This document shows positions 1,517-19,496 of a stretch of 48,107 nt of DNA, in pieces. The notes under the pieces were generated by a model. It made no database searches, was not told the origin of the DNA, and worked only from the letters and a program-made list of their open reading frames with translations. The stretch's first letter is position 1. The number at the start of each line of letters is the position of its first letter. The translations under genes were made by a program, and so were the position numbers. The stretch comes from Candidatus Caldatribacteriota bacterium (GTDB lineage: Bacteria > Atribacterota > Phoenicimicrobiia > Phoenicimicrobiales > Phoenicimicrobiaceae): contig JAYEGH010000091.1 of assembly GCA_034659055.1 (NCBI GenBank), positions 1 through 48,107 on the forward strand. The letters are read 5' to 3'.

Positions 1517-1608
1517 TTTTTCCTCCTTTTCCTGAAAACCATCATTTCATCTTGATAGATTTCTGCAAGTTCTGAGGCGTATAGCAGTACGCCCCTACTT
1601 CTTTTTTC

Positions 1609-1643
1609 CAAACTTGAAACTTGTAACTAGTAACCTGCAACTT
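1609..1643. repeat. Five tandem heptanucleotide repeats (CAAACTT GAAACTT GTAACTA GTAACCT GCAACTT)
   Basis: Read directly from the sequence. Strict 7-nt periodicity, consensus G(T/A)AACTT. Located 93-127 nt upstream of the ssnA start, in the 211-bp gap. Confidence 0.6.
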
Positions 1644-1662
1644 ATATCTTTAATTGGGCAAT

Positions 1663-1686
1663 TGGTAAATAGGTAAATTGGTTAAT
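1663..1686. repeat. Three tandem octamers (TGGTAAAT AGGTAAAT TGGTTAAT)
   Basis: Read directly from the sequence. Lies next to the heptad array in the same intergenic gap. Confidence 0.5.
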
Positions 1687-1727
1687 TTAATAACTATGCT
1701 ATATACTAAATTAAGATTGATAATATT

Positions 1728-3095
1728 TTATCCGTCAATCATTTTTTGCGAAATTTTATTAGCTTTTTCCACAACTTTATCTTCATCAATAGTCACTAGT
1801 TTTCCATCACGAACAACTATTCTACCATTCACTATAGTCATATCCACTATTTGCGAATCTCCGGAATTCACCAATGCAGAAACTGCATCCGATAAACCGC
1901 CGGCAAATCCCAATCTCTTAGTATTAATCAAAAACATATCGGCAGCTTTTCCTTCTTCAATGCTCCCTATTTCAGGTTGATTCAAAATATCCCGACCTCC
2001 GTTGGTTGCCATAGCCAAAACTTCTTCGGCCGACATAGCGGAAATACCTGAAATAAGCCTATGCATTAAAAAAGCAGCTCTCATCTCAGCAATCATGTTG
2101 GAAGAATCATTACTTGCACTGCCATCAACACCCAATCCCACCCTTACTTTCTTTTTTAACATATACGGTATGTTTGCTGGACCGGAAGCAAGTTTCTGGT
2201 TGGATACCGGGCAATGTGCCACACCCGTATTTGTTCTCGCCATTCGTTCAATTTCACTTTCGTTTAACCATACGCAATGGGCAAACCATACATCTTTACC
2301 CAGCCAGCCAACTTTTTCCATATACTTTAATGGTCGCAAGCCAAAAGTTTTCTGACAAAATTTATTTTCATCATTGGTTTCAGCCAGATGGGTATGACTC
2401 TCCACTTTATAATTTCGAGCCAATTTAATAGATTCTTTCATCAGCATTTCAGTAACTGAAAATGGTGAACAGGGTGACAGGACGACTCTTTGCATGGCAT
2501 AAGGTTTGTCATCATGATATTTTTCAATTACCCTTTGGGAATCGGTCAGTATCTCTTCTTCTGTCTGAACTACTGAATCCGGCGGTAAACCTCCGTCCTT
2601 TTCACTCAAAGACATAGAACCCCGGCTGCCGTGAAACCTCATCCCTATCTCTCCTGCTGCTTCAAATTCTTGGTCAATTATATTTTTACTTCGACCCCTG
2701 GGAAAGACGTAGAATTGATCAGAAGAAGTCGTACAACCTGTCTTTAAGAGCTCACCCATAGCAACTTGAGCGCTGTAATAAACAGCTTCCGGGGTTAAGT
2801 GAGCCCAAATAGGATAAAGAAATTTTAACCAGTCAAATAACTCGATATCTTGTACCTGGGGAATATTTCGAGTTAAGGTTTGATAAAAATGATGATGGGT
2901 ATTGATCAATCCGGGGAAAAGAAAGTAACTTGAACCATCGATAATTTCTTCTGCTTCATCTTCTATATTCGTCAGATCCGTAGTTATTTTATCGATAATG
3001 TTGTTTTTAATTAGAAGATTATATTTTTTTAATCTATTCCTCTCGTTATCCATGGTGACAATCTCTTTGATATTTTTAATTAGGATAGAAGACAT
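1728..3095 (-). CDS. Amidohydrolase, 8-oxoguanine/guanine deaminase-like (cytosine deaminase/chlorohydrolase group)
   Basis: 455 aa. Blocks PGLINTHHHFYQTLTR, HTHLAET and GLGVDGSASND are typical of this deaminase group. RBS GAGAGGAG lies upstream of the ATG. Confidence 0.75.
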   Translation of the reverse strand: MSSILIKNIKEIVTMDNERNRLKKYNLLIKNNIIDKITTDLTNIEDEAEEIIDGSSYFLFPGLINTHHHFYQTLTRNIPQVQDIELFDWLKFLYPIWAHLTPEAVYYSAQVAMGELLKTGCTTSSDQFYVFPRGRSKNIIDQEFEAAGEIGMRFHGSRGSMSLSEKDGGLPPDSVVQTEEEILTDSQRVIEKYHDDKPYAMQRVVLSPCSPFSVTEMLMKESIKLARNYKVESHTHLAETNDENKFCQKTFGLRPLKYMEKVGWLGKDVWFAHCVWLNESEIERMARTNTGVAHCPVSNQKLASGPANIPYMLKKKVRVGLGVDGSASNDSSNMIAEMRAAFLMHRLISGISAMSAEEVLAMATNGGRDILNQPEIGSIEEGKAADMFLINTKRLGFAGGLSDAVSALVNSGDSQIVDMTIVNGRIVVRDGKLVTIDEDKVVEKANKISQKMIDG

Positions 3096-3119
3096 TTAAT
3101 TACTCCTCTCTTTAGACTC

Positions 3120-3581
3120 CTATTTAGCTACACTTTCGATTGCTTCGATAATTTGCTCATAACCGGTACAGCGACAAAGATTACCTTCCAAAGCAGTCTT
3201 AATCTCCTCTCGCGTAGGATGGGGATTATGCATAAGTAGCGCTTTGGCAGACATCAACATTCCGGGTGTGCAAAACCCGCATTGAACAGCATTGCAATCA
3301 ATAAAAGCTTGTTGCAAAGGATCCGGCTTTCCCTTAATTTCCAATCCTTCTACAGTTAATACTTCACTACCCTCCAGCTGTCCGGTAAGAATAAGACAGG
3401 AATGAACCGCTTCACCGTTCAAGATAACTGTACATGCCCCGCATTCGCCTATTCCACAGCCTTCTTTTGTTCCCGTTAGTTTTAACTGATTTCTTAGAGT
3501 ATCGATCAAGCGTTCCTTTGGTCCTACCTCCAAAAACACCTGTTTTCTATTTACTTTAAAAGTAACCTTTGTTTTATTCAT
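3120..3581 (-). CDS. Xanthine dehydrogenase family, [2Fe-2S]-binding small subunit
   Basis: 153 aa. Two Fe-S cysteine clusters: CGIGECGACTV and CGFCTPGM...CRCTGY. Overlaps the FAD subunit stop by 8 nt. Confidence 0.9.
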   Translation of the reverse strand: MNKTKVTFKVNRKQVFLEVGPKERLIDTLRNQLKLTGTKEGCGIGECGACTVILNGEAVHSCLILTGQLEGSEVLTVEGLEIKGKPDPLQQAFIDCNAVQCGFCTPGMLMSAKALLMHNPHPTREEIKTALEGNLCRCTGYEQIIEAIESVAK

Positions 3582-4452
3582 TTTTGCTTTTCTCCTTGAT
3601 CACTTCTTTTAGAGCGCGTTGAACTAATGTTGAAATGACCGGCTTCTTATAAGGAGTCGACCACCTTATTCCTGTAACAGAAACAACTTCTTCACTCATT
3701 ATCCTGCCTATCTCTTCTATATTGATTTTATGAATAGATTGACCGTTGACAGCTCTTTCAACTCCGGGGAGAGATTGGGGATAGGGAGTGGCTGAACCGG
3801 GAACTATTCTTGCATCCCGAAAAATATTTTCCTCATCAATCTTTACTACCACAGCCAAATTTAACCTGGAAATTGACAGGGCTTTTCTTCTTCCTATTTT
3901 TTGAAAATCGGTATAATATCCATCACCAGGTAAGGGAATTCTTATTTTGGTTAATAATTCATTTATTTGAATTTTAGTTTTATAAGGACCTGCTAAAAAT
4001 TCTTCCAAGGATAATACTCTTTTGCCTTTCCTATATGTTAATTCTACTTCAGCCCTTAAGGCTATTAAAGGAGGTAACAGGTCCGCGGCTGGTGAGGCAT
4101 TACAAATATTGCCACCAATTGTTCCTCTGTTTCGTATTTGCGTTGAACCGATATAGTGTGCAGCACAACTCAGCAAGGGTAACTTTTCCTTAACCAACGG
4201 TTCATGCATTAACCCTGAATGAGTTACCAGGGGACCAATCTCCACATAATGGTCAACCTGCCGGATAAAATTTAAAGTACCGATATTGCTGATATCCAAC
4301 AAATAAGATATTTCCGGTAATCGCTTACTCTTATTGTGAATGTTCACCAGAATATCGGTTCCTCCGGCTATTACTTTTACCTGATTCAATTTATACAAGT
4401 AATTGAGTGCTTCTTCTAATCCGGAAGCTGATAAAAAATCGTAATCAATCAT
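3574..4452 (-). CDS. Xanthine dehydrogenase family, FAD-binding medium subunit (CoxM/XdhB-like)
   Basis: 292 aa. Blocks IAGGTDILV and RGTIGGNICNASPAADL. ATGA overlap with the large-subunit stop. Confidence 0.85.
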   Translation of the reverse strand: MIDYDFLSASGLEEALNYLYKLNQVKVIAGGTDILVNIHNKSKRLPEISYLLDISNIGTLNFIRQVDHYVEIGPLVTHSGLMHEPLVKEKLPLLSCAAHYIGSTQIRNRGTIGGNICNASPAADLLPPLIALRAEVELTYRKGKRVLSLEEFLAGPYKTKIQINELLTKIRIPLPGDGYYTDFQKIGRRKALSISRLNLAVVVKIDEENIFRDARIVPGSATPYPQSLPGVERAVNGQSIHKINIEEIGRIMSEEVVSVTGIRWSTPYKKPVISTLVQRALKEVIKEKSKNE

Positions 4453-6755
4453 TTTTTTCTTCCCCCTTTACTTAAAGAATATCCCAATAAAACTCTTTCT
4501 AAATTAAGGGGTAAATGTCTAATTCTTTTTCCTGTTGCCTGAGCTACCGCATTTGCAATGGCTGCCGCCCCTATTTCAAGGGTGGGTTCACCAATGGATT
4601 TTGCACCAAAAGGTCCGTTTGGATCCGGATTTTCTACGATAATGGGATTGATTTCCGGCATATCTTTAATTGTAGGAATCAAATATTCGTCAAAATTAGC
4701 ATTTTTAATATAGCCTTTATCTGTTTCCAATTCCTCCATTAAACCATAACCCATCCCCATCATGACTCCTCCGTAAATCTGTCCCTTAAGGCAAGCAGGG
4801 TTAATGGCTCTGCCTACATCATGGGCTGCTGTCATCTTTAACAGATCTACCTTTCCGGTCCCTGTATCTACTTCCACTTCAGCGATTTGGCAGCCATAGA
4901 CATAGGTAAAATACGGTCTTCCCTGTCCGGTTTCTTCATTCCAAGAGATATCAGGGGCCTTATACCACCCGAAAGCGGAAAGGCATAATCCCTCCTGGTA
5001 AGCCAATGATACGGTTTCTTCAAAAGAGAGTAATTTTTTTTCTGTTTTTCTGTCAATAAGATAATCATCTTGAATTATAATATAATCTTTTCTCATCTTG
5101 TATTTCTTTGCCATCATCTCAAGGAGCATACTTTTTAATTTGACCACAGCCTCTTTAATCGCATTACCGCCTAAGATAGTGCCGCGGGAAGCTACTGTAG
5201 AACCGCTGTCAGGCGATATCGAGGTATCCAGTTCCTGATAAATTACCCTTTTCATATCCACACCCAACTCCTCGGCAGCAATTTGCGATAAAACGGTTTT
5301 TAAGCCCTGACCATTTTCTGCTAATCCGGAGCTGATTAATATGCTTCCATCCTTTTGAATAGCCACGATGGCTCCGGCTGCATCGACCGCTTCTGCACCC
5401 AAACTACAACCGCGAAAACTGATCGCCATACCGATTCCTCTTTTTATATCTCCGGGTTTTGATTTATTATTTTTATATAATTCGTATTTTTTATAATAAC
5501 CACTTTCTTTTGCCGCTTTTTCTATAACCTCTTCCAGGCTCACCTCGTGATTATCCAGTTTCTGGCCACTTGCCGTGATTGAATTATTATGATAAATATT
5601 TTTTAAACGAATCTCAGCAGGGTTCATATTTAATTCCCCAGCTAATTCATCCATTAAAGATTCCTGGGCAAAGATGGTCTGGGGAGTACCGTAACCCCTC
5701 ATTGCCCCTGTATATACATTATTGGTGTAATAACCGTAGGTATCTGTTTTTACATTAGATAAACTATATGGACCTGTAGCCTGGACGACCGAACGCCAGG
5801 TAACAAAAGGTGTCTGACAGGCATAAGCTCCACTATCGGCGATACACTGAATTTCCATACCTAATAATTTACCCTCCCTTGAAGCTCCAATCTTATATTT
5901 CATCTTATAAGGATGACGCTTATAGCTTTCCAAAATGGATTCATAGCGTGAATTAACCATTTTTATCGGCCTCTTGGTTTTTAAGGCCAAAACAGAAGCC
6001 CGAGCGGCCATGGCAGACATTACCTCATCCTTGCCACCAAATGAACCACCAATATGATTCTGAATAATTCTTACTTTGTTTAAACTTACCATTAGTACAC
6101 TTGCAACTGCGTTTTGACAGGAAAAAGGATTTTGTATCGAACCATAAATAGTAATCAAATGATTGTCATCATAAGGTACTGCTACGATAGCTTCAGGTTC
6201 AATATAGCTGTGCTCTATAAATTGAGTGGAATATTCTCTTTCCAGGATAATATCTGATTTGGTAAATCCATCATTCACATTACCTTTTCTTAATAAATGA
6301 TGAATGACTTGATTATCTTTTAATTCAGGATGAACTCGAAGCGCTTTTTCTTTCGAGGCCTCTTCCGGGTCATAAATTCCGGGCAGTTCTTTATAGTCAA
6401 CTTCAATCAGCTCCAATGCTCTTTCTGCAGCCTCTTCTGTCTCTGCAGCTACCACAGCAATTCCATCCCCGATATAATATACATATTCCTTAGCCAATAC
6501 TTGTTGATTTTGAATAATTACTCCAAATTCATTATTGGGAATATCAGTAGCAGTTAAAAGAGCTTTAACCTCCGGAAAAGTTAAAGCTCTTTTTATTTCT
6601 ATTTTATTAATTTTTGCATGAGGGTATCTACTGCGCAAAACTTTTGCATAAAGCATATCGGGGAAAGATAAATCAGCTGCAAATTTGGCTTTACCGGTTA
6701 CCTTTTCATAAGCATCCACCCGATTAACTGATTTATTTACTTGATGATATTTCAT
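4449..6755 (-). CDS. Xanthine dehydrogenase family, molybdopterin-binding large subunit
   Basis: Blocks GGSFGGK, AMRGYGTPQ and the C-terminal SIGEPT (catalytic Glu context). The ORF runs to 6773, but the ATG at 6755 has RBS AGGGAG 9 nt upstream and the 6773 ATG has none. Confidence 0.9.
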   Translation of the reverse strand: MKYHQVNKSVNRVDAYEKVTGKAKFAADLSFPDMLYAKVLRSRYPHAKINKIEIKRALTFPEVKALLTATDIPNNEFGVIIQNQQVLAKEYVYYIGDGIAVVAAETEEAAERALELIEVDYKELPGIYDPEEASKEKALRVHPELKDNQVIHHLLRKGNVNDGFTKSDIILEREYSTQFIEHSYIEPEAIVAVPYDDNHLITIYGSIQNPFSCQNAVASVLMVSLNKVRIIQNHIGGSFGGKDEVMSAMAARASVLALKTKRPIKMVNSRYESILESYKRHPYKMKYKIGASREGKLLGMEIQCIADSGAYACQTPFVTWRSVVQATGPYSLSNVKTDTYGYYTNNVYTGAMRGYGTPQTIFAQESLMDELAGELNMNPAEIRLKNIYHNNSITASGQKLDNHEVSLEEVIEKAAKESGYYKKYELYKNNKSKPGDIKRGIGMAISFRGCSLGAEAVDAAGAIVAIQKDGSILISSGLAENGQGLKTVLSQIAAEELGVDMKRVIYQELDTSISPDSGSTVASRGTILGGNAIKEAVVKLKSMLLEMMAKKYKMRKDYIIIQDDYLIDRKTEKKLLSFEETVSLAYQEGLCLSAFGWYKAPDISWNEETGQGRPYFTYVYGCQIAEVEVDTGTGKVDLLKMTAAHDVGRAINPACLKGQIYGGVMMGMGYGLMEELETDKGYIKNANFDEYLIPTIKDMPEINPIIVENPDPNGPFGAKSIGEPTLEIGAAAIANAVAQATGKRIRHLPLNLERVLLGYSLSKGGRKK

Positions 6756-6833
6756 TTTCTTTGTCTCCCTCATTATTATAAATCATTTTAGAATGTAAGG
6801 AAAAACTTTTTTTCTTAATATAGATATTTTAAC

Positions 6834-8300
6834 TTATTTTAACAATCTGGTTTTCTCGTTGAATTTTTTAATCAATTCATCTATCTTGCCGACTTGCCGA
6901 TGAATACCATTCCAATAATTATTATAATCATACCATTGGGCATTCAATTCTTCCAAATTTTTATTTTGCTGTTCAATCCAGGTAAAGTATTTAAGATTAT
7001 GAATTCTCTTTCTGTCATTATAGGTTAATTCCTGCATATAATCGGTGGACAGTGCTTTAAGATTGCGATGATAATCAATGGCTGCATCGGTTTCATCATA
7101 TGAACCGAATTTTTCTTCCAATTCTTTTAACCGGGAACCATACAGCTCCATGGAATCCGTAAAAACGGTTAAAACAATATCATCTTCGGTTAATTCATAA
7201 AATTTGGCAAATTTGATAGCCATAATCATATTGGCCACGCTGGAAATTCCCAAGAGGGGCAATTGTTTGATAATATCACGGGAAACACCTTTTTTATTTA
7301 GATATTTCTGTCCTATCGGTTCATTAAATAGTCGAATTAGTCCCATGGTATTGTTATCATCGACTGCGATGACCATATCGGTATTTCTCACATTATGAAT
7401 CCAGGGAACATGCTTATCTCCTATACCTTCTATTCTATGTGCACCAAAACCATTAGCCGTTAAAGTCGGACATTGCAAGGCTTCTCCGGCAACAATTTTG
7501 CTGGTGGGAAATTGTTCTTTCATGTAATCTCCACAACCCAGGGTTCCAGCAGAACCGGTGGTTAAAACCACACCGGCATACTTATCTTTACCCTTCATCT
7601 CTTTGGCCAGGACCTCTGTCATAGCCTTACCGGTAACCTCATAATGCCATAGATGATTGCCAAATTCATCAAACTGATTAAATACAACGACATTACCCCT
7701 GGTCTTTTTTAATTCCCAGGATTTATCAAAAATTTCTTTTACATTGCTCTCCGTTCCGGGAGTGGCAATAACTTCTCCGGCTACATTGGATAACCAGTCA
7801 AAACGTTCCCTACTCATCCCTTCCGGTAAAATGGCAATGGATTCACAGGAAAGCAGATCGGCATCATAGGCACCACCCCGACAGTAATTGCCCGTAGAAG
7901 GCCAGACTGCCTTTTGAGAGGTAGGGTCAAACTGGCCGGTAACCAGACGGGGAACCAGACATCCGAAAGTCGCTCCGACTTTATGGGCACCGGTTGGAAA
8001 CCATTTCCCGACCAAAGCGATTATTCTGGCATTTACGCCGGTAAGTTCCCGGGGTAATTCCACGTAATTAACTCCCCCAAATTGACCACCCATTTTGACC
8101 GGTTTATTTTTCCAGGTGATTCGAAAGAGATTATAAGAATTAATATCCCATAATCCAATATTTTTTAATTTATCTTTCACCTGTTGTGGTACAAGCTCAG
8201 GATTTTCCTGTTCAGCAAAAGTCGGGATAATTATATTTTTTTCCTTCGCCCTTCCCACTGTCATTTTCAGTTGTTCTTCATTGATAGTTAAATCAATCAT
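6834..8300 (-). CDS. Fold-type II PLP-dependent enzyme with a TrpB-like lysine motif; function unknown
   Basis: 488 aa. PTGAHKVG resembles the TrpB PLP-lysine block HTGAHK. Gly-rich TTGSAGTLGCG loop and a long helical C-terminal extension. ATGA start/stop overlap with the upstream M20 gene. Confidence 0.6.
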   Translation of the reverse strand: MIDLTINEEQLKMTVGRAKEKNIIIPTFAEQENPELVPQQVKDKLKNIGLWDINSYNLFRITWKNKPVKMGGQFGGVNYVELPRELTGVNARIIALVGKWFPTGAHKVGATFGCLVPRLVTGQFDPTSQKAVWPSTGNYCRGGAYDADLLSCESIAILPEGMSRERFDWLSNVAGEVIATPGTESNVKEIFDKSWELKKTRGNVVVFNQFDEFGNHLWHYEVTGKAMTEVLAKEMKGKDKYAGVVLTTGSAGTLGCGDYMKEQFPTSKIVAGEALQCPTLTANGFGAHRIEGIGDKHVPWIHNVRNTDMVIAVDDNNTMGLIRLFNEPIGQKYLNKKGVSRDIIKQLPLLGISSVANMIMAIKFAKFYELTEDDIVLTVFTDSMELYGSRLKELEEKFGSYDETDAAIDYHRNLKALSTDYMQELTYNDRKRIHNLKYFTWIEQQNKNLEELNAQWYDYNNYWNGIHRQVGKIDELIKKFNEKTRLLK

Positions 8301-9439
8301 TTTATTTTCTCCTTTGTTTTTAAAAATTCAATAAACGTATCTACTGATTGATAAAGGGATTTCAATTCGATATATTCATCATTTTGATGGGCCTGGGCGA
8401 TATCCCCGGGACCATAAATAGTAAAAGGTATTTTTTTCTCGGGAATAATCGTTGCTCCGTCAGTACAATATCTGGTAATAACTGCTTCATCCACACCGGC
8501 TGTCTTTATAAATTTTTGAATATAAGGATTTTTCGGGTCGGTAAAAATAGGATGTTTGTAATTAAAAACCTCTTCTTCAAATCGCACGTTATACTTTTCT
8601 GCAATATCTTCGCCAGTCTTCTTAATCAACTCTATTGCTTTTTCTTTATCTTCTTCTGAAATCACTCTAAAATCAAATTGTATTTCTGAATAATTTGGCA
8701 CAATATTTACCTGTACACCACCATGAAACTGTCCAATATTCATGGAAGTTTTACCCCAAAAATAATCGGTTTTAAATATTTTTTTATATTGCCCGGTTAC
8801 CTCCATAATTAGTTCACTCCCGGGGATAACACTGCTTACACCAACTTCAGGAGTAGAACCATGAGCAGATTTACCGTAAAACTTTGCACTTATCCATAAT
8901 TCTCCCTTTTCTCCGCAAGATACCTGTAGTGTTGAAGGTTCAGTGATAATTAAAAAATCTGTTTGGTTAAAATAACCTTTATTGGTTAAATCTTTTGCTC
9001 CTCTATATCCCCATTCTTCATCTGCGGTAAGCGCCAGCAAAATGGTTTTTTGAGGAATAATTCCTCTTCTTTTTAAAAGTATGGCAGCATATATCATGGC
9101 GGCTACTCCACCTTTCATATCAGATGTTCCCCTGCCATACATTCTGTCATTTTCAATCAATCCCTGAAATGGCGGTTTTTCCCAATATTCCTCTTTTACT
9201 CTAACGGTATCGAGATGACCGCAGAAAGCAATATTTCTTTCTTCTTTACCCGGTATTTTAGCAACCAGAGAGTCTCTTCCCTCTTCCAGTTGTACAATTT
9301 CAGAATCAATATCATTACTTGAAAGAAATTCTTTGATAAAATGTGCTATTTTACTTTCATTTCCCGGAGGATTTTCGCTATTTATTTGTATTAATTTTTG
9401 TAAAAATTCAACCAATTCTTCCTTTTCTTCTGCCTTCAC
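8297..9439 (-). CDS. M20 family metallo-amidohydrolase (ArgE/DapE/YgeY-like)
   Basis: 380 aa. Blocks CGHLDTV, GRGTSDMKGG, TADEEWG and ITEPS. GTG start overlaps the ThrC-like stop (GTGA). Confidence 0.8.
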   Translation of the reverse strand: MKAEEKEELVEFLQKLIQINSENPPGNESKIAHFIKEFLSSNDIDSEIVQLEEGRDSLVAKIPGKEERNIAFCGHLDTVRVKEEYWEKPPFQGLIENDRMYGRGTSDMKGGVAAMIYAAILLKRRGIIPQKTILLALTADEEWGYRGAKDLTNKGYFNQTDFLIITEPSTLQVSCGEKGELWISAKFYGKSAHGSTPEVGVSSVIPGSELIMEVTGQYKKIFKTDYFWGKTSMNIGQFHGGVQVNIVPNYSEIQFDFRVISEEDKEKAIELIKKTGEDIAEKYNVRFEEEVFNYKHPIFTDPKNPYIQKFIKTAGVDEAVITRYCTDGATIIPEKKIPFTIYGPGDIAQAHQNDEYIELKSLYQSVDTFIEFLKTKEKIK

Positions 9440-10665
9440 TCTAAATTCTCCTTTACTGCTTCTAAATTTGGATCTATGGTAAGTGCTTTTCCGCCTGCCT
9501 TTTTTGCGCTTTCTACATCTTTTAATCCATTTCCGGTAACTAATACAGCTATTTTATCTCTTTTAGAAATTTTTCCTTCCTGTAAACATTTTAGCATACC
9601 GGCAAAGGCGGTAGAACCTGCAGGTTCTGCAAAGATACCCTGTGCGGTACCCAAATATTTAATTGCCTTGATTATTTCTTCATCACTAACCGTAACACCA
9701 AATCCATCTAGTCCTTTTACATCTCTAACTGCCATTAAACGATTCCGGGGTATGCCCACTGAAATGCTGTCAGCGATAGTATCGGGTTCAACAAATTTTA
9801 CATTTCCGTCTCCGTTAATCGCATCTACAATCGGTTTGCATCCTTCCGCCTGAACCGCTATTACTTTGGGTAAGTGATCGATAAAACCCAGGGTTAACAT
9901 TTCTCTGTAAGCTTTAACTACTCCGGATATGATGCAACCATCTCCCACGGAAACAAATACAAAATCAGGAACCTCAAAATTCATTTGCTCAATAATTTCC
10001 AAACCAACAGTTTTTTTCCCTTCCACCATGTAAGGATTAAAGGCTGTGTTCCGGTTATACCATCCAAATTCCCTGGTTGCTTCGATAGACAAATCGAAGG
10101 CTTCATCATAGCTTCCCTTCACCGCAAAAACAGTGGAACCGAAAACCAGCAATTGAGCTATTTTAGCAATCGGTGCAGTTTGAGGAACAAAAATGTAACT
10201 CTTTAAACCTACCGAAGCAGCAGCTCCGGCCAGCGAAGAAGCGGCATTGCCCGTAGAAGCACAGGTTATAGTTTTTTCCCCTAATTCCCGAGCTTTTACA
10301 ATTGCAATGGCTGAAGGTCTGTCTTTTAGAGAAGCAGTTGGATTTCTACCGTCATCCTTGATCCACAAATTGGGTATTCCGAGATCTTCCCTAATTCTTT
10401 TTGCTTCATATAATGGTGTCCATCCTACCTTTAACGGACCTATCTTTTCCATATCATCTACAGGTAAAAGTGGCAAATATCTCCACATGGAGTACTCCCT
10501 GTTATCTTGCAAAGTTGTTTTAGTGAAATTTTTTCCGATACCGGAATAATCGTAAATAACTTCCAGGACGCCTTCATCTCCACATTTTGGACAGGTATAT
10601 CTTACCTCATCGGGTGGATATTCCGCCCCGCAGATCAAACATTTTAATTTTTTTATATTATTCAT
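9436..10665 (-). CDS. Threonine-synthase-family PLP enzyme with an N-terminal 4-Cys zinc ribbon
   Basis: Blocks CLICG...CPKCG, PLP-lysine NPTASLKDR, STGNAASS and VTGNGLKD. The ORF extends to a TTG at 10689, but the ATG at 10665 follows GGGAGG by 10 nt. Confidence 0.75.
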   Translation of the reverse strand: MNNIKKLKCLICGAEYPPDEVRYTCPKCGDEGVLEVIYDYSGIGKNFTKTTLQDNREYSMWRYLPLLPVDDMEKIGPLKVGWTPLYEAKRIREDLGIPNLWIKDDGRNPTASLKDRPSAIAIVKARELGEKTITCASTGNAASSLAGAAASVGLKSYIFVPQTAPIAKIAQLLVFGSTVFAVKGSYDEAFDLSIEATREFGWYNRNTAFNPYMVEGKKTVGLEIIEQMNFEVPDFVFVSVGDGCIISGVVKAYREMLTLGFIDHLPKVIAVQAEGCKPIVDAINGDGNVKFVEPDTIADSISVGIPRNRLMAVRDVKGLDGFGVTVSDEEIIKAIKYLGTAQGIFAEPAGSTAFAGMLKCLQEGKISKRDKIAVLVTGNGLKDVESAKKAGGKALTIDPNLEAVKENLE

Positions 10666-10765
10666 ATTTATATTTCCTCCCGGGCACAAATTATCTCCAA
10701 TCCTTTTGGAGTACTAATACGTTTAGTTTATATTAGCAAAGTATCAATAACGATTAATATTAAAG

Positions 10766-10804
10766 CAATGGGTGGGGCTCTACAACTACCCCCACCACCC
10801 ATTG
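10766..10804 (-). terminator. GC-rich stem-loop downstream of carbamate kinase (probable intrinsic terminator)
   Basis: CAATGGGTGG pairs with CCACCCATTG (10 bp), then a 1-nt bulge and 2 more GC pairs. In minus-strand sense it is followed by CTTTAATATTAAT. Lies about 100 nt after the arcC stop. Confidence 0.5.
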
Positions 10805-10900
10805 ACTTCCGGTGGCAATACTGTCCAACAGGAAAGGGATACAATTAATAGTGAGTTAATCTCCACCTTACAAATTTGTAGTTTTTATGACTATTGTAAC

Positions 10901-11851
10901 TTAGGGAAATATATGTGTTCCGGTTTCTCCTTTTAGTGCTCTTTCCAGGGATTCAGGATTTGTGACAATAGCTTCTTTTCCTCCTGCTTCCAGAAATCTT
11001 ACAATCGCCTGAATCTTGGGAAGCATGCTCCCTTTGGCAAAATGTCCTTCATTAATATATTTCTTTGCTTCTGCTACAGTTAGTTTATCCAAATCAATTT
11101 GATCCGATTTATTAAAGTTTAAACAAACTTTCTCTACTGCAGTAGAAATAACAAAAAGATCTGCTTTAATATTGATGGCCAGTAAACTTGAAGCATTATC
11201 TTTATCGATAACTGCAGCTACACCTTCGAGCATGCCATCATCATTGTAAGCTACCGGAATTCCTCCGCCTCCAACGCCGACCACGCTGAAACCATTTTTT
11301 ACCAAGGTATTGATTGCATCTTCTTCTACAATCTCTACCGGCATCGGAGAAGGAACTACTCTTCTATAGCCTCTGCCTACATCATCGATGATAACCCAAT
11401 CGGGATGTTCTTTCTGTAGTTCTTCTGCTCTTTCTTTGGAATAAAAAGTACCAATCGGTTTTGCAGGATTCTGAAATGCAGGGTCTTTTTTATCTACGAC
11501 AACCTGGGTCACAACCGTAGCAATTTGTTTCTTAATCCCCCGTTTTTTAAACTCATTGTCCATTGCCTGCTGAATTTGATATCCGATAGAACCCTGGGTA
11601 TCTGCTCCGCAACTCACCAAAGGAACATCATGCATCCCTCCGACTTCATGGGCAATTTCCGAACGTCTTAAAATAAATCCCACCTGCGGACCGTTGCCAT
11701 GAGTTACTACTACACTATAATTCTGTTCTATTAGACTGGCAATGTGTTTGGCTGTTTCACATACTGCATTATACTGGTCTTCTACAGTCTCATGCTTTTT
11801 GTCCTTAATAAGGGAATTTCCCCCAATAGCCAATACTGCTAATTTACTCAT
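10901..11851 (-). CDS. arcC: Carbamate kinase
   Basis: 316 aa. Blocks LAIGGNSL and VVTHGNGPQVG, with carbamate-kinase length and layout. Starts 3 nt after the upstream carbamoyltransferase stop. Confidence 0.9.
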   Translation of the reverse strand: MSKLAVLAIGGNSLIKDKKHETVEDQYNAVCETAKHIASLIEQNYSVVVTHGNGPQVGFILRRSEIAHEVGGMHDVPLVSCGADTQGSIGYQIQQAMDNEFKKRGIKKQIATVVTQVVVDKKDPAFQNPAKPIGTFYSKERAEELQKEHPDWVIIDDVGRGYRRVVPSPMPVEIVEEDAINTLVKNGFSVVGVGGGGIPVAYNDDGMLEGVAAVIDKDNASSLLAINIKADLFVISTAVEKVCLNFNKSDQIDLDKLTVAEAKKYINEGHFAKGSMLPKIQAIVRFLEAGGKEAIVTNPESLERALKGETGTHIFP

Positions 11852-11854
11852 TTT

Positions 11855-12865
11855 CTATCTCCATCCTTCCGCCATAGTTAAGGCCATTATAGCTTTTTGG
11901 GCATGTAATCTGTTTTCCGCGAGATCATAAACAATGGAACGGGAACCACTTGCCACTTCATCATCGACTTCATTTCCGCGATCAATAGGCATGGGATGAA
12001 TATAATAAGCATCATCTGTAAGGGCAGCAAGTTCTTTTGTATATCTCCAATCCTTATATTTTAAGGCAATTTTCTTTTCTTCTTCCTTGCCTATAGTATA
12101 TCTTAACGGACTCATCCAATTTCTGGCATATACGACTTGTGCACCTTTTACCGCTTCATGCCTATCATGGCTGATTTCAAATTTTGATCCGGAAATTTCG
12201 GCATTCTTTTTACCCTGGGCAATAACTTCGGGATCCAATTCGAAGCCTTCCGGATGAACCAGAGTAAAGTCCATCCCATAACGAGGAAGTAGAAAAATAT
12301 CTTCCTGCACAGAACTCCAGGAACGCACCATTGAAGAATAACCCCACATCATGGTTATTTTTTTACCCTTTACGTCTCCCATATGTTCCTGAAGACCCAT
12401 TAAGTCAGCAAGCCCCTGGCAGGGATGATATTTATCATGAGCCATGGATACAAGAGGGATGGATAAATATTTAGCATATTCTCTAAGCAATTCTTCTCCC
12501 TGTCCATATTCTCTTATGGCATCTTCCAATAGTCTGATCCCTAATCCTACAGCATATCTGCTCATAACATTTGCTGCATCCTCAACTGTCTCTCCTGCTT
12601 TCCCCTTCTCTTTTAATCTCATAGATTTGGGTTCAAGGAATTGAGCATGACCACCCAATTCTGTAGCTGCTGCTTCAAATGATTGCCTGGTTCTAACCGA
12701 AGGATTATAGAAAAACATTAAAAAAGTTTTATCTTTAAGAATTTCGGTATAAGGTTTTTCGTAACGGTGTTTTTTCATATCTTTTGCGAGGGCCAACACT
12801 TCATCAAGCCACTCTTTTTCCCAATCCTGGGTAGTAATCATATGTTTTTTATAAAGTTTTGTCAT
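11855..12865 (-). CDS. Non-canonical carbamoyltransferase (Asp/Orn transcarbamylase fold; CT1)
   Basis: 336 aa. Has SVRTR and HPCQ carbamoyl-phosphate motifs and an ATCase-like HPMPIDRGNEV block. The second-substrate region reads YARNW and lacks the OTC DxxxSMG motif. RBS AGGAGGAAATAA-ATG. Confidence 0.8.
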   Translation of the reverse strand: MTKLYKKHMITTQDWEKEWLDEVLALAKDMKKHRYEKPYTEILKDKTFLMFFYNPSVRTRQSFEAAATELGGHAQFLEPKSMRLKEKGKAGETVEDAANVMSRYAVGLGIRLLEDAIREYGQGEELLREYAKYLSIPLVSMAHDKYHPCQGLADLMGLQEHMGDVKGKKITMMWGYSSMVRSWSSVQEDIFLLPRYGMDFTLVHPEGFELDPEVIAQGKKNAEISGSKFEISHDRHEAVKGAQVVYARNWMSPLRYTIGKEEEKKIALKYKDWRYTKELAALTDDAYYIHPMPIDRGNEVDDEVASGSRSIVYDLAENRLHAQKAIMALTMAEGWR

Positions 12866-12893
12866 TTATTTCCTCCTATTTACTTAGTGAATG

Positions 12894-12921
12894 GTAATTC
12901 GTATCGCGTATTGCGTGAAAA
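12894..12921. repeat. Four tandem heptads (GTAATTC GTATCGC GTATTGC GTGAAAA)
   Basis: Read directly from the sequence. Lies 29-56 nt upstream of the CT1 start codon. Confidence 0.5.
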
Positions 12922-12950
12922 AATTAGGATTAAAACTTTCTTGCGCCTGT

Positions 12951-12989
12951 CATTCCCATGAAACCTGTCCTCGACCTGATCGGGGAATG
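12951..12989. repeat. Inverted repeat CATTCCC...GGGAATG with a 25-nt spacer
   Basis: 7-bp arms at 12951-12957 and 12983-12989, in the 210-bp gap between the cyclic amidohydrolase and CT1. Confidence 0.55.
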
Positions 12990-13028
12990 GGAATCTATCT
13001 TATCCTTTTTAATTCTTCTAACTTCGTT

Positions 13029-13046
13029 GGGCACGATGCGTCGTGC
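13029..13046. repeat. Small GC hairpin GCACGA-TGCG-TCGTGC, preceded by GG
   Basis: Perfect 6-bp stem with a tetraloop. The 11-mer GGGCACGATGC (13029-13039) recurs inverted at 34891-34901. Confidence 0.55.
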
Positions 13047-13075
13047 TCATACAAGGCATTACTATATTTTATTTT

Positions 13076-14455
13076 TTAAATCCCTGACTTATTCTTGACA
13101 AAATGTCCGTATCCCCTTTTGCCGACAACTCCCTCGTCTTCTCTATAAACCATCTCTCCACGGATAATAGTCATATAAATTTTTCCTTTTAGTATCTTAC
13201 CGGAAAAGGGGGAATACTTTCCTTTACTTTCCAATCTTGATGATTCCACTAACCATTCTTTATTAAGGTTTATAACCGAAAAGTCTGCATCGCTGCCTAC
13301 TCGAATTATTCCTTTTTGAGGATAAATTCCATATCTTTTCGCAGCATTTTCTGACATCAGTTTCTGAATCTCGCCCAAATTTAATCTTCCTTTATGATAT
13401 CCGTAATTAAGTATGGCCGAAACAGCTAATTGTGTACCGGGAATACCAGCATAATTTTTCCAGATATTCGAAAAAGACTTCTCTTCGGGATATTTTCCGG
13501 CAGCATGATCAGTGCAAATAAAATTAATAGAACCGTCTTTCAATCCTTCCCAAAGTCCTTCATTATCCTCTTTTTTCCGTAAAGATGGTGCAACTTTTAA
13601 TATTGCTCCCATTTTTTTAAAATCTTCAACTGTAAAAAGTAAATAGTGAGGACATGTTTCAGTGCTTATATCCATCCCATCAGCTTTTGCCCGACGAATA
13701 ATATTTAATCCTTCTCTTGTAGAAAGATGTACGATATGCAGTTTATTACCCGCTTTTCTGGTAACGCCTACTACAGACCATATTGCTTTTGGTTCTGCTT
13801 CGTATGTCCGCCCTTCACACCAGCTTTCTACATCAGTTCTTCCTTGCATCTTTATAAGATTAGAATAATAATCAACTAAAAAGTAATCCTCTGCATGCAC
13901 TGCACACACCAAGTTTAACTTTTTAAGGAATTTGAAAGCTTTATCCATTTCTGAAACCGGCATCCTGGGATAAAATTCCATTCCGGATACAGTATAAAAC
14001 TTTACTCCAACAATCCCTCTTTCTTTTAGCTCTTCTAAAGTCTTTTTATACTCTCCTGATTTTACCTGTTCAGGGGTAACTCCTCCCCAAAAAGCAAAAT
14101 CAACATATGCTTTTTCTTTTACTATATTTAATTTGCAATCAAAATTCTTACCACTGGTAACCATAGGAATAGAAGTGCAGGGCATATCAATAATTGTAGT
14201 AATACCACCAGCCGCTGCACTTCTGGTTCCGGTTTCAAAATCCTCTCTTTGAGTATATCCGGGGTCATCAAAATGAACATGAGGGTCAATAAAACCCGGA
14301 AAAACCACATTCTTCTTTATATCAATTTCTCTTTCTGCAGGAAGTAATATTTCATCTCCGGGTACAATTTTATTTATCTTACCCTTTTTAATGTCAATAC
14401 TTACTTTTTTTAATTGATTATCTACTAAAATTAAAGCATTTTTAATCCTTATCAT
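13076..14455 (-). CDS. Cyclic amidohydrolase (allantoinase/dihydroorotase/hydantoinase family)
   Basis: 459 aa. Blocks FIDPHVHFDDPG...ETGTRSAAAGGITTIIDMP, VGVKFY (carboxylated-Lys context), VHAED, HIVHLST, TCPHYL and CTDHA. The C-terminal half resembles E. coli AllB as I recall it. Confidence 0.8.
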   Translation of the reverse strand: MIRIKNALILVDNQLKKVSIDIKKGKINKIVPGDEILLPAEREIDIKKNVVFPGFIDPHVHFDDPGYTQREDFETGTRSAAAGGITTIIDMPCTSIPMVTSGKNFDCKLNIVKEKAYVDFAFWGGVTPEQVKSGEYKKTLEELKERGIVGVKFYTVSGMEFYPRMPVSEMDKAFKFLKKLNLVCAVHAEDYFLVDYYSNLIKMQGRTDVESWCEGRTYEAEPKAIWSVVGVTRKAGNKLHIVHLSTREGLNIIRRAKADGMDISTETCPHYLLFTVEDFKKMGAILKVAPSLRKKEDNEGLWEGLKDGSINFICTDHAAGKYPEEKSFSNIWKNYAGIPGTQLAVSAILNYGYHKGRLNLGEIQKLMSENAAKRYGIYPQKGIIRVGSDADFSVINLNKEWLVESSRLESKGKYSPFSGKILKGKIYMTIIRGEMVYREDEGVVGKRGYGHFVKNKSGI

Positions 14456-14492
14456 TTTTCTCCTTTTACTTCCTGTCAGATTTACAGGACCT

Positions 14493-15536
14493 TTATCTCA
14501 TCAGAAGAGTCATTATTGCCTTTTGAGCATGCAGTCTGTTCTCAGCTTCATCAAAGACCACCGAATTCGGACCATCAATTACCGAATCGGTTACTTCATA
14601 CCCTCTATCACAAGGCAGGCAATGCATATAAATTGCTTCCGGTTTAGCTAATTTTAATTTTCGGTCATCACATATCCAATCCTTATTTTTATCAAATAGG
14701 GCTTTCATCTTCTCTACATTTATTTCAGAAGTTTGCGGCGGAACACAGGTTAAGCTACCCCATGATTTAGGATATAACACATCTGCATCTTTAAAAGAAT
14801 CTTCCATAGAATCGGTTTCTTCAAATGAGCCACCGTATTTTTTAGAATTTTCTTTGATGGCATCAATCATCATGGGATCCAGTTGGAAACCCTCCGGACG
14901 GGCTAAAGTAATATTCATACCAAACTTACTGGCTGTTGACATTAAACACTGTGGAACTGCCACTGGTTTTTCCACACTTGGTGAATAAGCCCAGCTTACT
15001 ACCAATTTTTTATTACGTAAGTCACCCAATTTTTCTTTCATGGTGAGGACATCAGCCATCGACTGACAAGGGTGATATATATCGTCTTCCATATTAATTA
15101 CTGGGATATCTGCCCATTTAGCAAATTCGCGCAGATATTTATTACCATTACCATATTTCCAACCGGTCGGTTTTCCATACATTCTTATAGCAATACCATC
15201 GCCCATTCTAGCCAATACGCGAGCAACATCAGATACTCTTTCTGTAGAGTAGGCTCTCTCTTCACCTTCAGTAGCAGGAGTATATATCTTTTCTGAATCC
15301 AGATAATTGGCATGTCCGCCTAACTGAGTCATTCCAGTTTCAAAGCTGTTACGGGTTCGTAAAGATTTATTGTAAAAGATAATAAATAAAGTTTTACGGA
15401 GAAGCAGTGAGTGCTCCCGACCAGATGCATTGTCAGCCTTTAAAACAGCAGCTAACTCCAGCATACTTTCTAATTCGTCCTTGGTAAATTCCAGTGTACT
15501 TATAAAGTCACGACCTTTTAATGATTTTGTTTTCAT
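14493..15536 (-). CDS. YgeW-like non-canonical carbamoyltransferase (CT2)
   Basis: 347 aa. Has SLRTR, HPCQ and HCLP motifs. The blocks SWAYSPSVEKPVAVPQ and GGSFEETDSMEDSFKDADVLYPKSW mirror E. coli YgeW (WAYSPSYGKPLSVPQ; GGSF..TSMEEAFKDADIVYPKSW, from memory). RBS AGGAGGAATCAAA-ATG. Confidence 0.8.
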   Translation of the reverse strand: MKTKSLKGRDFISTLEFTKDELESMLELAAVLKADNASGREHSLLLRKTLFIIFYNKSLRTRNSFETGMTQLGGHANYLDSEKIYTPATEGEERAYSTERVSDVARVLARMGDGIAIRMYGKPTGWKYGNGNKYLREFAKWADIPVINMEDDIYHPCQSMADVLTMKEKLGDLRNKKLVVSWAYSPSVEKPVAVPQCLMSTASKFGMNITLARPEGFQLDPMMIDAIKENSKKYGGSFEETDSMEDSFKDADVLYPKSWGSLTCVPPQTSEINVEKMKALFDKNKDWICDDRKLKLAKPEAIYMHCLPCDRGYEVTDSVIDGPNSVVFDEAENRLHAQKAIMTLLMR

Positions 15537-15844: not shown

Positions 15845-16768
15845 TTAAGAACGCTCCTTGATATAAGGTTTGCCTAAAAAGGCCGGAACATTAAATTTCC
15901 TTCTAGCAATGGTTGCTACAATTGTCAGAATATAGGGAAGAGCAATTAAGAATTCATTCGGAATCAGCTTAAAATTAGAAGTCAGCAAAACAACGGACAA
16001 TCCTTCGGCAAATCCAAAAATCAGAGAACCAATTAATATTCCCAGCGGATCCCAATTACCTAAAAAACAGATTGCAAAAGCAATCCATCCTCTTCCTCCA
16101 ATAATATCATTAGTATAAAGTCCTAAAAATCCTATAGAGTAGAAGGCTCCTGCTAAGCCATCCAATGCACTCGACCCAAGCACGGCAAGGAAGCGAATGC
16201 GTTCCACATTAATCCCGGCTACATCCACTGCTTCTGGATTTTCACCTGTAGAACGAATAATTAATCCTAAAGGTGTTTTAAATAAAATCCAATATCCTAC
16301 AGCAATCAGTACGACTGCCAGATAAGTCAAACTATTCTGACTAAAGAGAGCTCTTCCAATAATAGGAATATCAGATAAAAAAGGAATTGAAATATCCTTT
16401 AAAGGTTCTACGGTTAATGGTAAAAGAGGAATTCCAAATAACATTTGATAAAGAAACAATCCTAAACCCAAGGTAAGGATATTTATCGCTACTCCAGTTA
16501 CAATTTGATGTTGTTTTAATTTAATTGTGAAATAACCATAGATTGCACCACAAAAGATCCCTACCAGTATGGCAAATAAAAAACCAACCCATAGTTTTCC
16601 GGTCAAATAAGCTCCAACAAAACCTCCCCATGCACCCATAAGAAAGATTCCTTCAATAGCTATATTCATCACGCCAGTCCGCTCAGCAAATACTTCCCCT
16701 AATGCACCAAGCATCAAAGGTGTACTCATACGAATGGTAGCAACAAATAATCCAGTAATAATATTCAT
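15845..16768 (-). CDS. ABC transporter permease (BMP/nucleoside-type system)
   Basis: 307 aa, polytopic and hydrophobic. Overlaps the upstream permease gene by 4 nt, in an operon with a BMP-family binding protein. Confidence 0.85.
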   Translation of the reverse strand: MNIITGLFVATIRMSTPLMLGALGEVFAERTGVMNIAIEGIFLMGAWGGFVGAYLTGKLWVGFLFAILVGIFCGAIYGYFTIKLKQHQIVTGVAINILTLGLGLFLYQMLFGIPLLPLTVEPLKDISIPFLSDIPIIGRALFSQNSLTYLAVVLIAVGYWILFKTPLGLIIRSTGENPEAVDVAGINVERIRFLAVLGSSALDGLAGAFYSIGFLGLYTNDIIGGRGWIAFAICFLGNWDPLGILIGSLIFGFAEGLSVVLLTSNFKLIPNEFLIALPYILTIVATIARRKFNVPAFLGKPYIKERS

Positions 16769-19420: not shown

Positions 19421-19433
19421 GTTTTCTTCTTCC

Positions 19434-19480
19434 AAAAAAAAGAGGGGGGATTGAAGAGTTTTTAAAAACCCTTCAATCCC
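19434..19480 (-). terminator. Hairpin plus U8 tract directly after the BMP binding-protein gene (attenuator/terminator)
   Basis: GGGATTGAAG (19447-19456) pairs with CTTCAATCCC (19471-19480). The loop holds the palindrome GTTTTTAAAAAC. In minus sense it is followed by CCCCTCTTTTTTTT. Confidence 0.6.
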
Positions 19481-19496
19481 TACTATCAATATTGTT

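Follow-up and report, generated by a model that had tools for sequence, protein, structure and literature searches.

A threonine-synthase-like and a CysK-fold pyridoxal phosphate enzyme in a YgeX-less purine gene cluster of Atribacterota and other lineages

The reductive degradation of urate was worked out only in 2025, for gut bacteria using YgeX: 2,3-diureidopropionate loses its ureido groups by means of YgeW/UacY and YgeY, and the resulting 2,3-diaminopropionate is turned by YgeX into pyruvate and ammonia (bioRxiv 10.1101/2025.05.19.654654). The stretch of DNA analyzed here, referred to as the window, comprises positions 1 to 48,107 (48,107 nucleotides) of contig JAYEGH010000091.1 (assembly GCA_034659055.1) from a Candidatus Caldatribacteriota bacterium (Atribacterota). 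By homology, its gene cluster matches much of the parts list of this reductive urate (2,8-dioxopurine) pathway, and no YgeX homologue was found in the window. The question raised by this locus is which enzymes could complete the pathway in its place. Three minus-strand open reading frames (ORFs), encoding in this order a threonine synthase (ThrC)-like protein (ThrCl), an M20 metallohydrolase and a 488-residue pyridoxal phosphate (PLP) protein (PLP488), lie upstream of the genes for a xanthine dehydrogenase (XDH)-family hydroxylase, and the original prediction, made from the sequence, had presented them as a translationally coupled trio in which a ThrC-like and a TrpB-like enzyme replace the YgeX step. 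The answer favored here, with modest confidence and on the grounds of sequence and gene context, is that the two PLP enzymes would form the C3 amino-acid end of a YgeX-less reductive purine pathway, with diaminopropionate converted to pyruvate and ammonia as the net reaction. What is new is the presence of two uncharacterized PLP subfamilies in a YgeX-less variant of a known pathway: neither of two preprints from 2025 (10.1101/2025.05.19.654654 and 10.1101/2025.04.24.650524) mentions threonine-synthase-like or cysteine-synthase-like genes, and no publication was found linking YgeX, threonine synthase and XDH.

Relationships of the two PLP enzymes

ThrCl matched the Pfam PALP profile (2e-76) and exceeded two curated ThrC cut-offs (NF006050, 314 bits vs. 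303; TIGR00260, 199.2 bits vs. 167.1), scoring under the cut-offs of the remaining ThrC models. Its likeness to ThrC extends across the whole catalytic domain, which aligned at ~40% with ThrC structures from Aquifex, Bacillus, Thermus and Mycobacterium, and includes the catalytic lysine K114 and the S-T-G-N loop at residues 137-140, which align with Thermus K61 and S84-N87 and are unchanged. The N-terminal CxxC...CxxC ribbon and the NPTASLKDR block, in which K114 lies, had been noted at the first reading of the sequence and were both present in the translation, the former as CLIC...CPKC.

The difference from ThrC resides in substitutions of the pocket, in the added N-terminal zinc ribbon and in the genetic context, which is purine catabolism and not hom-thrB. 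The comparison of active sites, proposed in the original prediction, was made on a signature alignment of 49 ThrCl orthologues (sharing 39-83% identity with the protein of the window) and four solved ThrCs (2zsj, 6cgq, 1uim and 2d1f). In all 49 orthologues, the position of Thermus T88 is occupied by Ala (A141 in the window protein), that of R160 by Met, Leu or Thr (M213), that of N188 by Asp (D242) and that of S155 by Ala, Thr or Gly, the four solved ThrCs invariably preserving Thr, Arg, Asn and Ser at these sites; the position of Thermus N191 is Ile, Thr or Val, that is, hydrophobic or Thr, again in 49 of 49. Moreover, Lys replaces the Gln of the EGQKT motif in the orthologues, and Asp-Ser (D299-S300) replaces Thr-Ala. 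In the zinc ribbon, C9, C12 and C25 were kept in 47 of the 49 proteins, the fourth ligand being Cys, His or Asp.

T88, S155, R160 and N188 of Thermus ThrC are taken by us, from the complex of Omi et al. (2003), to be the ligands of the substrate phosphate. Given these roles, a phosphorylated substrate is unlikely for ThrCl because the Arg and the Thr were lost and two Asp residues were gained, and the remodeled pocket would suit a leaving group that is cationic or donates hydrogen bonds, for instance an amine. Judged by its residues, ThrCl is a member of the threonine-synthase superfamily with a remodeled leaving-group pocket and not a threonine synthase, and active-site remodeling in that family is illustrated by it with particular clarity. 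Cysteate synthase, a ThrC descendant recruited to react at the beta position of a C3 amino acid, is a precedent, and its profile TIGR03844 matched residues 7-385 of ThrCl, the N-terminal region being shared in the alignment; the score was, however, only 90.9 bits (cut-off 324.9), and cysteate synthase still takes a phosphorylated substrate. The relationship to YgeX is also distant, since ThrCl reached 61.7 bits with the YgeX model NF006058 (cut-off 276) and 25% identity over 30% of the length in a BLAST comparison with E. coli YgeX.

PLP488 matched Pfam PALP with an E-value of 4e-12 and contains the PTGAHK block reported earlier, its lysine K107 and further motifs being conserved. The best NCBIfam model was cysK (92.6 bits vs. 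350.95); this model, cysKM (83.1 vs. 344) and the cystathionine beta-synthase (CBS) model (73 vs. 510) were all under cut-off, and no match to the YgeX profile was obtained, the BLAST alignment with E. coli YgeX covering 9%. Of 79 sequence matches to proteins of solved structure, the 60 best, which were those listed, were all CysK or CBS, with identities of 22-27%, and the alignment with these enzymes comprises the lysine, the S-T-G-N loop, the glycine-rich phosphate loop, H-x-I-x-G-I-G and G-I-S-S. An AlphaFold2 model, built on an alignment with distant representatives of the family, had a mean predicted local distance difference test score (pLDDT) of 94.4 and consists of a core (~76-390), an N-terminal extension (1-75) and the C-terminal helical extension that the original prediction had described (helices at 384-484, the extension reaching 488). 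The 50 best Foldseek matches were all CysK-fold enzymes (cysteine synthases, CBS, beta-cyanoalanine and beta-substituted-alanine synthases), with target TM-scores of 0.51-0.85, or 0.77-0.85 where the target had the length of the catalytic core, and query TM-scores of 0.51-0.58. Because the query TM-score is only ~0.55, the helices at the two termini, some 170 residues, are left without a structural counterpart, the CysK catalytic core alone measuring ~300-330 residues against 488. The model and the profiles thus place PLP488 as a CysK/CBS-fold enzyme of an uncharacterized family with terminal helical extensions. It resembles CysK, CBS and beta-cyanoalanine synthase in its core fold (TM-score 0.80-0.85 on targets) and, as would be expected, in PLP-aminoacrylate chemistry, and it differs from CysK in the extra terminal helices and in having neither a CysE partner nor a sulfur context.

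The label 'TrpB-like' given to this protein in the original prediction had to be abandoned, profiles, sequence and structure all being CysK/CBS-like: no TrpB model matched at E ≤ 0.001, and TrpB was found neither among the 60 PDB entries best matched by sequence nor among the 50 best matched by structure. The G-A-H-K motif around the lysine is the sole resemblance to TrpB. A kinship with OrtB, the PLP subunit of 2-amino-4-ketopentanoate thiolase, was also dropped, as no model or name supports it and ten distant representatives of the family are generically named ('cysteine synthase', 'PLP-dependent enzyme').

Two relatives of PLP488 deserve separate mention. The anaerobic metamonad protist Aduncisulcus paluster encodes a homologue of 562-571 residues and 44% identity (P0126/P0406), which may reflect a transfer into a eukaryote, and a member of a distant branch of the family (P0141) has the PLP lysine replaced by Gln (GSYQV vs. 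GAHKV) and may be a catalytically dead paralogue.

The names under which both proteins are filed bear directly on the possibility that the pair is an ordinary threonine synthase and an ordinary cysteine synthase merely located in a purine cluster. That ThrCl passes two NCBIfam ThrC cut-offs, that public records name it threonine synthase and that JGI names PLP488 cysteine synthase would all fit such housekeeping enzymes. This explanation is nevertheless most improbable, given that ThrCl departs from all four solved ThrCs at positions which those share, that PLP488 scores 92.6 bits against 351 for cysK and carries ~170 extra residues, and that the synteny with purine genes extends across many phyla. 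Furthermore, neither hom nor thrB (homoserine dehydrogenase or kinase) was found among the 29 window ORFs scanned (185-15536 and 15845-39457), and cysE was likewise not found near the pair within the window. The claim that neither PLP gene is a housekeeping thrC or trpB was in this way upheld on the sequence covered, the 48-kb window and the 10-kb flanks of other loci, with PLP488 having no TrpB affinity. Annotation pipelines at present label the pair as threonine synthase plus cysteine synthase, YgeX-based surveys of the pathway would miss its carriers, and metabolic models would credit these organisms with a threonine/cysteine route that may not exist.

Occurrence and genetic context of the pair

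Loci were searched for with a five-sequence alignment of the PLP488 family in one genome per GTDB species, which gave more than 597 relatives; the best 80, 63-77% identical, were examined with flanks of 10 kb. These belong to Anaerolineae and other Chloroflexota, Bipolaricaulota, Thermotogae, Synergistota, Desulfosporosinus, Clostridium, Halanaerobiales, Spirochaetota and Asgard archaea. A second set comprised 80 metagenome loci, and all ORFs of the loci were compared with the proteins of the window and of the E. coli cluster. Homologues of PLP488 with at least 78% identity were those of Atribacterota, in which synteny extends over the entire cluster.

Core purine or ureide genes were found within 10 kb at 56 of the 80 species-level loci, and at 41 of the 51 having at least 5 kb on both sides, which bears out the link to purine genes postulated for the window. 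True YgeY (47-71%), HyuA, YqeA, YgfK and SsnA orthologues were common at these loci. The ThrCl gene was present at 48 of the 80, and wherever both PLP genes occurred (50 loci: 47 GTDB species, one locus of an Atribacterota metagenome-assembled genome and the window) they lay on the same strand and the neighbors of the ThrCl gene were purine or ureide genes. The E. coli order ygeW-ygeX-ygeY-hyuA-yqeA, on which the idea of a replaced YgeX step was built, was confirmed, and the absence of YgeX proved general, a homologue being detected at one of the 80 GTDB species loci and at none of the 80 metagenome loci, so that 159 of 160 are devoid of it. Many environmental anaerobes (Atribacterota, Anaerolineae, Bipolaricaulota, Thermotogae, Synergistota and Desulfosporosinus) are thereby indicated to end the pathway with two PLP enzymes other than YgeX, and cultured carriers exist in Desulfosporosinus nitroreducens, Caldisericum exile, Anoxybacter fermentans and Clostridium thailandense.

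The two PLP genes were directly adjacent at 20 of the 50 loci and separated by a single gene at 26. The intervening gene encodes an M20 protein in Atribacterota and elsewhere a GT2 glycosyltransferase, a metallo-beta-lactamase-fold protein, a glycoside hydrolase, VanZ or serine hydroxymethyltransferase (SHMT); the GT2 gene, for example, occupies this position in ~18 Anaerolineae species (L019:8940-12085, L033 and L052, among others; Pfam 1e-35). Because the intervening gene varies, the conserved unit is the pair and the trio is a local variant. The comparison across genomes therefore sustained the original prediction in part: the PLP pair recurs in purine clusters, the trio proposed as a conserved module does not, M20 being confined to Atribacterota in this position, and either PLP gene can be found alone. 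In Anaerolineae, a conserved ORF of ~197 residues without a Pfam match follows the PLP488 gene.

The M20 protein carries PF01546 (Peptidase_M20) and PF07687 (M20_dimer) and passes the ArgE/DapE model TIGR01910 (275.4 bits, cut-off 217.6). It had been compared with YgeY on account of its position, and it is not a YgeY orthologue, since it scored under both YgeY cut-offs (196.3 bits vs. 321 and 154.5 vs. 321.5) and shares 26% identity with the E. coli protein, against 47-71% for the true YgeY orthologues of other loci. It was present between the PLP genes in L001-L004 and L098, and the Atribacterota relative L097 had no M20 gene there. The M20 gene is an Atribacterota-specific insert between the PLP genes, and its product is probably a hydrolytic decarbamoylase or deacylase.

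Each gene without the other was also observed beside ureide genes. The ThrCl gene occurs in the absence of the PLP488 gene in L172, in the series GntR regulator, two carbamoyltransferases, carbamate kinase and ThrCl, and similarly in L171, and in the cultured Caldisericum exile it accompanies genes for SsnA, adenine deaminase, a hydantoinase and a Bmp-type ABC transporter. Conversely, the PLP488 gene alone is followed on the same strand by carbamate kinase and carbamoyltransferases A and B in L007 (Thermotogae) and L009 (Bipolaricaulota); in L027 and L045 it adjoins the genes of the two carbamoyltransferases and carbamate kinase, which are read from the other strand.

In Asgard archaea (Thor- and Hodarchaeota; L013, L029, L042, L049, L060 and L065), PLP488 homologues 67-70% identical were found with no purine genes nearby. 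This high identity across domains suggests a recent horizontal transfer and strong constraint.

The XDH-family genes that often adjoin the pair bear on a further explanation, namely, that the CysK-fold enzyme, perhaps with ThrCl, makes cysteine, selenocysteine or a related donor for the selenium- and molybdenum-dependent hydroxylase and does not degrade the C3 product. Besides this adjacency and the CysK/CBS fold, the occurrence of SelB at eight Anaerolineae loci and the reported selenium dependence of the pathway hydroxylases (bioRxiv 10.1101/2025.04.24.650524) would agree with a supply of sulfur or selenium. We regard this role as very unlikely, considering that many loci in which the pair accompanies genes of carbamoyltransferase and carbamate kinase have no XDH gene (for example, L020 and L172), that PLP488 falls far under every CysK, CysM and CBS cut-off, and that the absence of YgeX would be left unexplained.

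Proposed reaction and its alternatives

Under the reading favored here, XDH, SsnA and the allantoinase-type hydantoinase would, on the basis of homology, open the purine to 2,3-diureidopropionate, from which two carbamoyltransferases would take off the ureido groups as carbamoyl phosphate, used by carbamate kinase to form ATP. In Atribacterota the M20 enzyme would additionally remove a ureido group by hydrolysis, and the product of these steps would be 2,3-diaminopropionate. The PLP pair would then remove the beta-amino group by beta-elimination or beta-replacement, the carbon ending in pyruvate with release of ammonia. The pair resembles YgeX in being composed of fold-type II PLP enzymes, in occupying the same place in the cluster beside carbamoyltransferase, M20, hydantoinase and carbamate kinase genes, in occurring where YgeX is missing and in the proposed net reaction (diaminopropionate to pyruvate and 2 NH3); it differs from YgeX in not being orthologous to it and in consisting of two proteins instead of one. 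The original prediction had expected a chemistry unlike that of YgeX; the net reaction may be identical.

In the preferred division of labor, ThrCl would act on diaminopropionate and form either the aminoacrylate intermediate or serine, which arises by hydration of the latter, its phosphate pocket having been rebuilt around new aspartates, and the water addition at C-beta that is native to the family may release the serine. PLP488 would then convert serine-level C3 amino acids to pyruvate, and the lineages bearing SHMT would divert serine to glycine and a one-carbon unit. This sequential two-enzyme route through serine is tentative, and we would put it clearly below the net reaction itself. 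A slightly more doubtful version specifies that ThrCl hydrolytically deaminates diaminopropionate to serine, with D242, which stands in place of N188, taking over the water activation performed in threonine synthase by the released phosphate, and that PLP488 is a PLP-dependent serine/diaminopropionate dehydratase, both activities being new, so that anaerobic purine breakdown would be linked to serine, glycine and one-carbon metabolism (SHMT, FolD and formate-tetrahydrofolate ligase) in widespread uncultured anaerobes, Atribacterota, Anaerolineae and Synergistota among them.

The clues to serine came from loci in which SHMT is encoded between the two PLP enzymes. In L015 (Synergistaceae; 460-9705), the operon consists of M20-M20-ThrCl-SHMT-PLP488-FTHFS-FolD, FTHFS being formate-tetrahydrofolate ligase. 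The arrangement ThrCl-SHMT-PLP488 recurs in four further metagenome loci (L091, L093, L099 and L100), of which L091 preserves the whole M20-M20-ThrCl-SHMT-PLP488 core, with FTHFS and FolD ~5 kb further downstream; SHMT lies nearby in three more loci, and L102 and L103 are among the Synergistaceae-type SHMT loci. A true YgeY (70-74% identity) and a carbamoyltransferase are encoded in L093 and L100, the latter having HyuA as well. Because SHMT uses or makes serine, these arrangements tie the pair to serine-level C3 amino acids, and a possible link of purine carbon to serine and one-carbon metabolism is suggested. Serine dehydratases of the SdhA/SdhB type are iron-sulfur and not PLP enzymes. Such a dehydratase operates together with SHMT in the glycine-serine-pyruvate route of purine fermentation in C. 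acidurici (PMC3519856); the Synergistaceae-type loci resemble this route in that SHMT, FolD and formate-tetrahydrofolate ligase share an operon with the pair, and differ from it in the type of the L-serine dehydratase, which is SdhA/SdhB there. As for pyruvate, the adjacency of the PLP488 gene to pyruvate phosphate dikinase in the Thorarchaeota locus L042 and to a glycyl-radical enzyme resembling pyruvate formate-lyase in Anoxybacter fermentans gives weak hints that this is the product of PLP488.

Several observations weigh against the proposal that the pair ends the purine pathway in this manner. In E. coli, YgeX alone suffices for what is here assigned to two enzymes, and since either PLP enzyme alone accompanies carbamoyltransferase and carbamate kinase, the two could act in parallel and not in sequence. 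The only YgeX-positive locus, L055 of Desulfosporosinus nitroreducens P130, has the pair too; its YgeX (L055:18133-21293), 52% identical to that of E. coli, is encoded 7 kb from the pair, next to a sigma-54 activator, with ABC-2 transporter genes between. About one-fifth of the well-flanked PLP488 loci, Asgard archaea included, have no purine gene nearby, and the non-purine neighbors (TPR proteins, riboflavin synthesis, a DNA methylase, a ClpB-type AAA+ ATPase with ClpB_D2-small) are uninformative. No dearomatizing reductase of the YgfK, UacX/PreA-like or F420-dependent luciferase-like kind was found in the 48-kb window, which leaves the upstream route incomplete there; such reductases do occur at Desulfosporosinus loci (YgfK, UacX-like) and at Anaerolineae loci (F420-dependent, luciferase-like). 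The M20 enzyme has no necessary job beside two carbamoyltransferases and is redundant on paper. Finally, the reasoning about the ThrCl pocket depends on the phosphate-ligand role assumed for T88, S155, R160 and N188.

The loci carrying one gene without the other give substance to the alternative of parallel lyases, in which both proteins would be diaminopropionate or serine ammonia-lyases, for instance, one for the D- and one for the L-enantiomer, dividing between them the work that YgeX does with two catalytic bases. HyuA-like and allantoinase-like hydantoinases both occur in the clusters, which makes both enantiomers conceivable, and YgeX was reported to be equally active on the two isomers of diaminopropionate (bioRxiv 10.1101/2025.05.19.654654). 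The sequences are silent on stereospecificity, the presence of ThrCl does not track the type of hydantoinase, and the SHMT gene between the PLP genes would be left unexplained; we therefore hold such a division of work to be unlikely.

The aspartates acquired by ThrCl could also form hydrogen bonds with a ureido group, and this is relevant to the alternative that one of the enzymes is a ureido-amino-acid lyase eliminating urea or carbamate from 3-ureidoalanine (albizziin), thereby bypassing the YgeY step. Albizziin, whose alpha-amino group is free, is an intermediate of the pathway, most Anaerolineae loci have no YgeY-type M20 gene, and O-ureidoserine synthase (3x44) appeared at rank 35 of the structural matches of PLP488, indicating that the CysK fold accommodates ureido side chains. 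Nearly all well-covered loci, however, encode two ureido-cleaving enzymes (two carbamoyltransferases, or a carbamoyltransferase and YgeY), from which diaminopropionate is to be expected, and the release of urea would forgo the ATP obtained from carbamoyl phosphate. A lyase of this kind is accordingly considered quite improbable, though less so than the supply of sulfur or selenium.

Layout of the locus and remaining genes of the cluster

The features of the cluster are collected in Table 1. The start/stop overlaps of 4 nt stated in the original prediction, GTGA (9436-9439) between ThrCl and M20 and ATGA (8297-8300) between M20 and PLP488, were read directly in the sequence, as was the position of the trio just upstream of XDH; the junctions are gagaatttagaGTGAagg and ggagaaaataaaATGAttg, with AAGGAG preceding each downstream start. 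The likely start of ThrCl is the ATG at 10665, placed 8 nt after GGGAGG, which gives the length of the homologues, and a gap of 60 nt separates the PLP488 gene from the start of the XDH molybdenum subunit at 6773. Overlaps of 4 nt are the commonest type of junction in prokaryotic operons and unremarkable alone. That between M20 and PLP488 was not conserved in other Atribacterota, where it is replaced by gaps of 56 nt (L001) and 461 nt (L002).

The spacer between carbamate kinase and ThrCl is unusually long in the window, the same spacer measuring only 67 nt in L001. It contains a G+C-rich hairpin, CAAUGGGUGGUGGGGG...CCCCACCCAUUG, at 10760-10815 of the minus strand, the stability of the fold not being significant (overall z-score of -1.2); no Rfam family was found in the whole window at gathering thresholds, and the hairpin is unclassified. 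It may act as a terminator or attenuator, and the trio may perhaps have its own transcription start.

Table 1. Features of the purine cluster in the window, listed along the direction of transcription
Feature	Position	Strand	Basis of assignment
Bmp-type ABC transporter (binding protein, ATPase, two permeases) and helix-turn-helix (HTH)-cupin regulator	15845-21237	-	Bmp, ABC_tran, BPD_transp_2 (two), HTH_3 + Cupin_2
Carbamoyltransferase A, 347 aa	14493-15536	-	OTCase domains; 36% identity to E. coli YgeW
Cyclic amidohydrolase, allantoinase/hydantoinase type, 459 aa	13076-14455	-	TIGR03178, 394 bits vs. 358
Carbamoyltransferase B, OTCase fold, 336 aa	11855-12865	-	OTCace_N + OTCace
Carbamate kinase (YqeA counterpart)	10901-11851	-	NF009007, 462 bits vs. 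266; 47% identity to E. coli YqeA
Intergenic spacer carbamate kinase/ThrCl, 235 nt	10666-10900	-	G+C-rich hairpin
ThrC-like PLP enzyme (ThrCl), N-terminal zinc ribbon, 409 aa	9436-10665	-	Pfam PALP, NCBIfam ThrC profiles
M20 metallohydrolase, ArgE/DapE group, 380 aa, GTG start	8297-9439	-	Peptidase_M20 + M20_dimer
488-aa PLP enzyme (PLP488)	6834-8300	-	Pfam PALP, CysK/CBS-fold core
XDH-family three-subunit Mo hydroxylase	Mo 4449-6773; FAD 3574-4452; 2Fe-2S 3120-3581	-	Pfam of L001 orthologues
Amidohydrolase, 8-oxoguanine-deaminase type, 455 aa	1728-3095	-	NF006055, 614.7 bits vs. 532
SsnA amidohydrolase	185-1516	-	NF005540, 595.3 bits vs. 444; 33% identity to E. coli SsnA

Along the direction of transcription, the cluster begins with the HTH-cupin regulator and the transporter, followed by carbamoyltransferase A, the cyclic amidohydrolase, carbamoyltransferase B, carbamate kinase, the trio, XDH, the amidohydrolase of 8-oxoguanine-deaminase type and SsnA, which is the marker enzyme for the reductive urate pathway. 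Both carbamoyltransferases are 34-36% identical to YgeW and below the YgeW cut-offs. Carbamoyltransferase A is the one that most widely adjoins the PLP pair, with homologues in more than 40 loci, and carbamoyltransferase B scored under every curated cut-off (141 bits vs. 453 for the YgeW model). The XDH subunits, whose L001 orthologues have the domains Ald_Xan_dh_C/MoCoBD, FAD_binding_5 and Fer2_2, are 31% identical to E. coli XdhA and 28% to XdhD.

The 459-residue cyclic amidohydrolase is 29% identical to E. coli HyuA and 53% identical to the product of a Caldisericum exile gene that adjoins those of SsnA and ThrCl, and it is probably, on these similarities, the HyuA counterpart. The gene of 8-oxoguanine-deaminase type adjoins that of PLP488 in several further phyla. 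The names 8-oxoguanine deaminase and allantoinase may be misleading in a strict anaerobe, and the 459-residue enzyme would more probably open 5-ureidomethylhydantoin. An aerobic-type allantoin degradation was rejected as the principal explanation of the cluster, given that SsnA and XDH flank the module and that the pair sits with YgfK, UacX and a true YgeY elsewhere.

In other Atribacterota, a gene of the arginine-deiminase/DDAH fold lies just upstream of carbamoyltransferase A (L001:1752-2597 and L002:1525-2363), with two split ORFs in L002-L004, and it is in this position that the window holds the Bmp-type ABC transporter.

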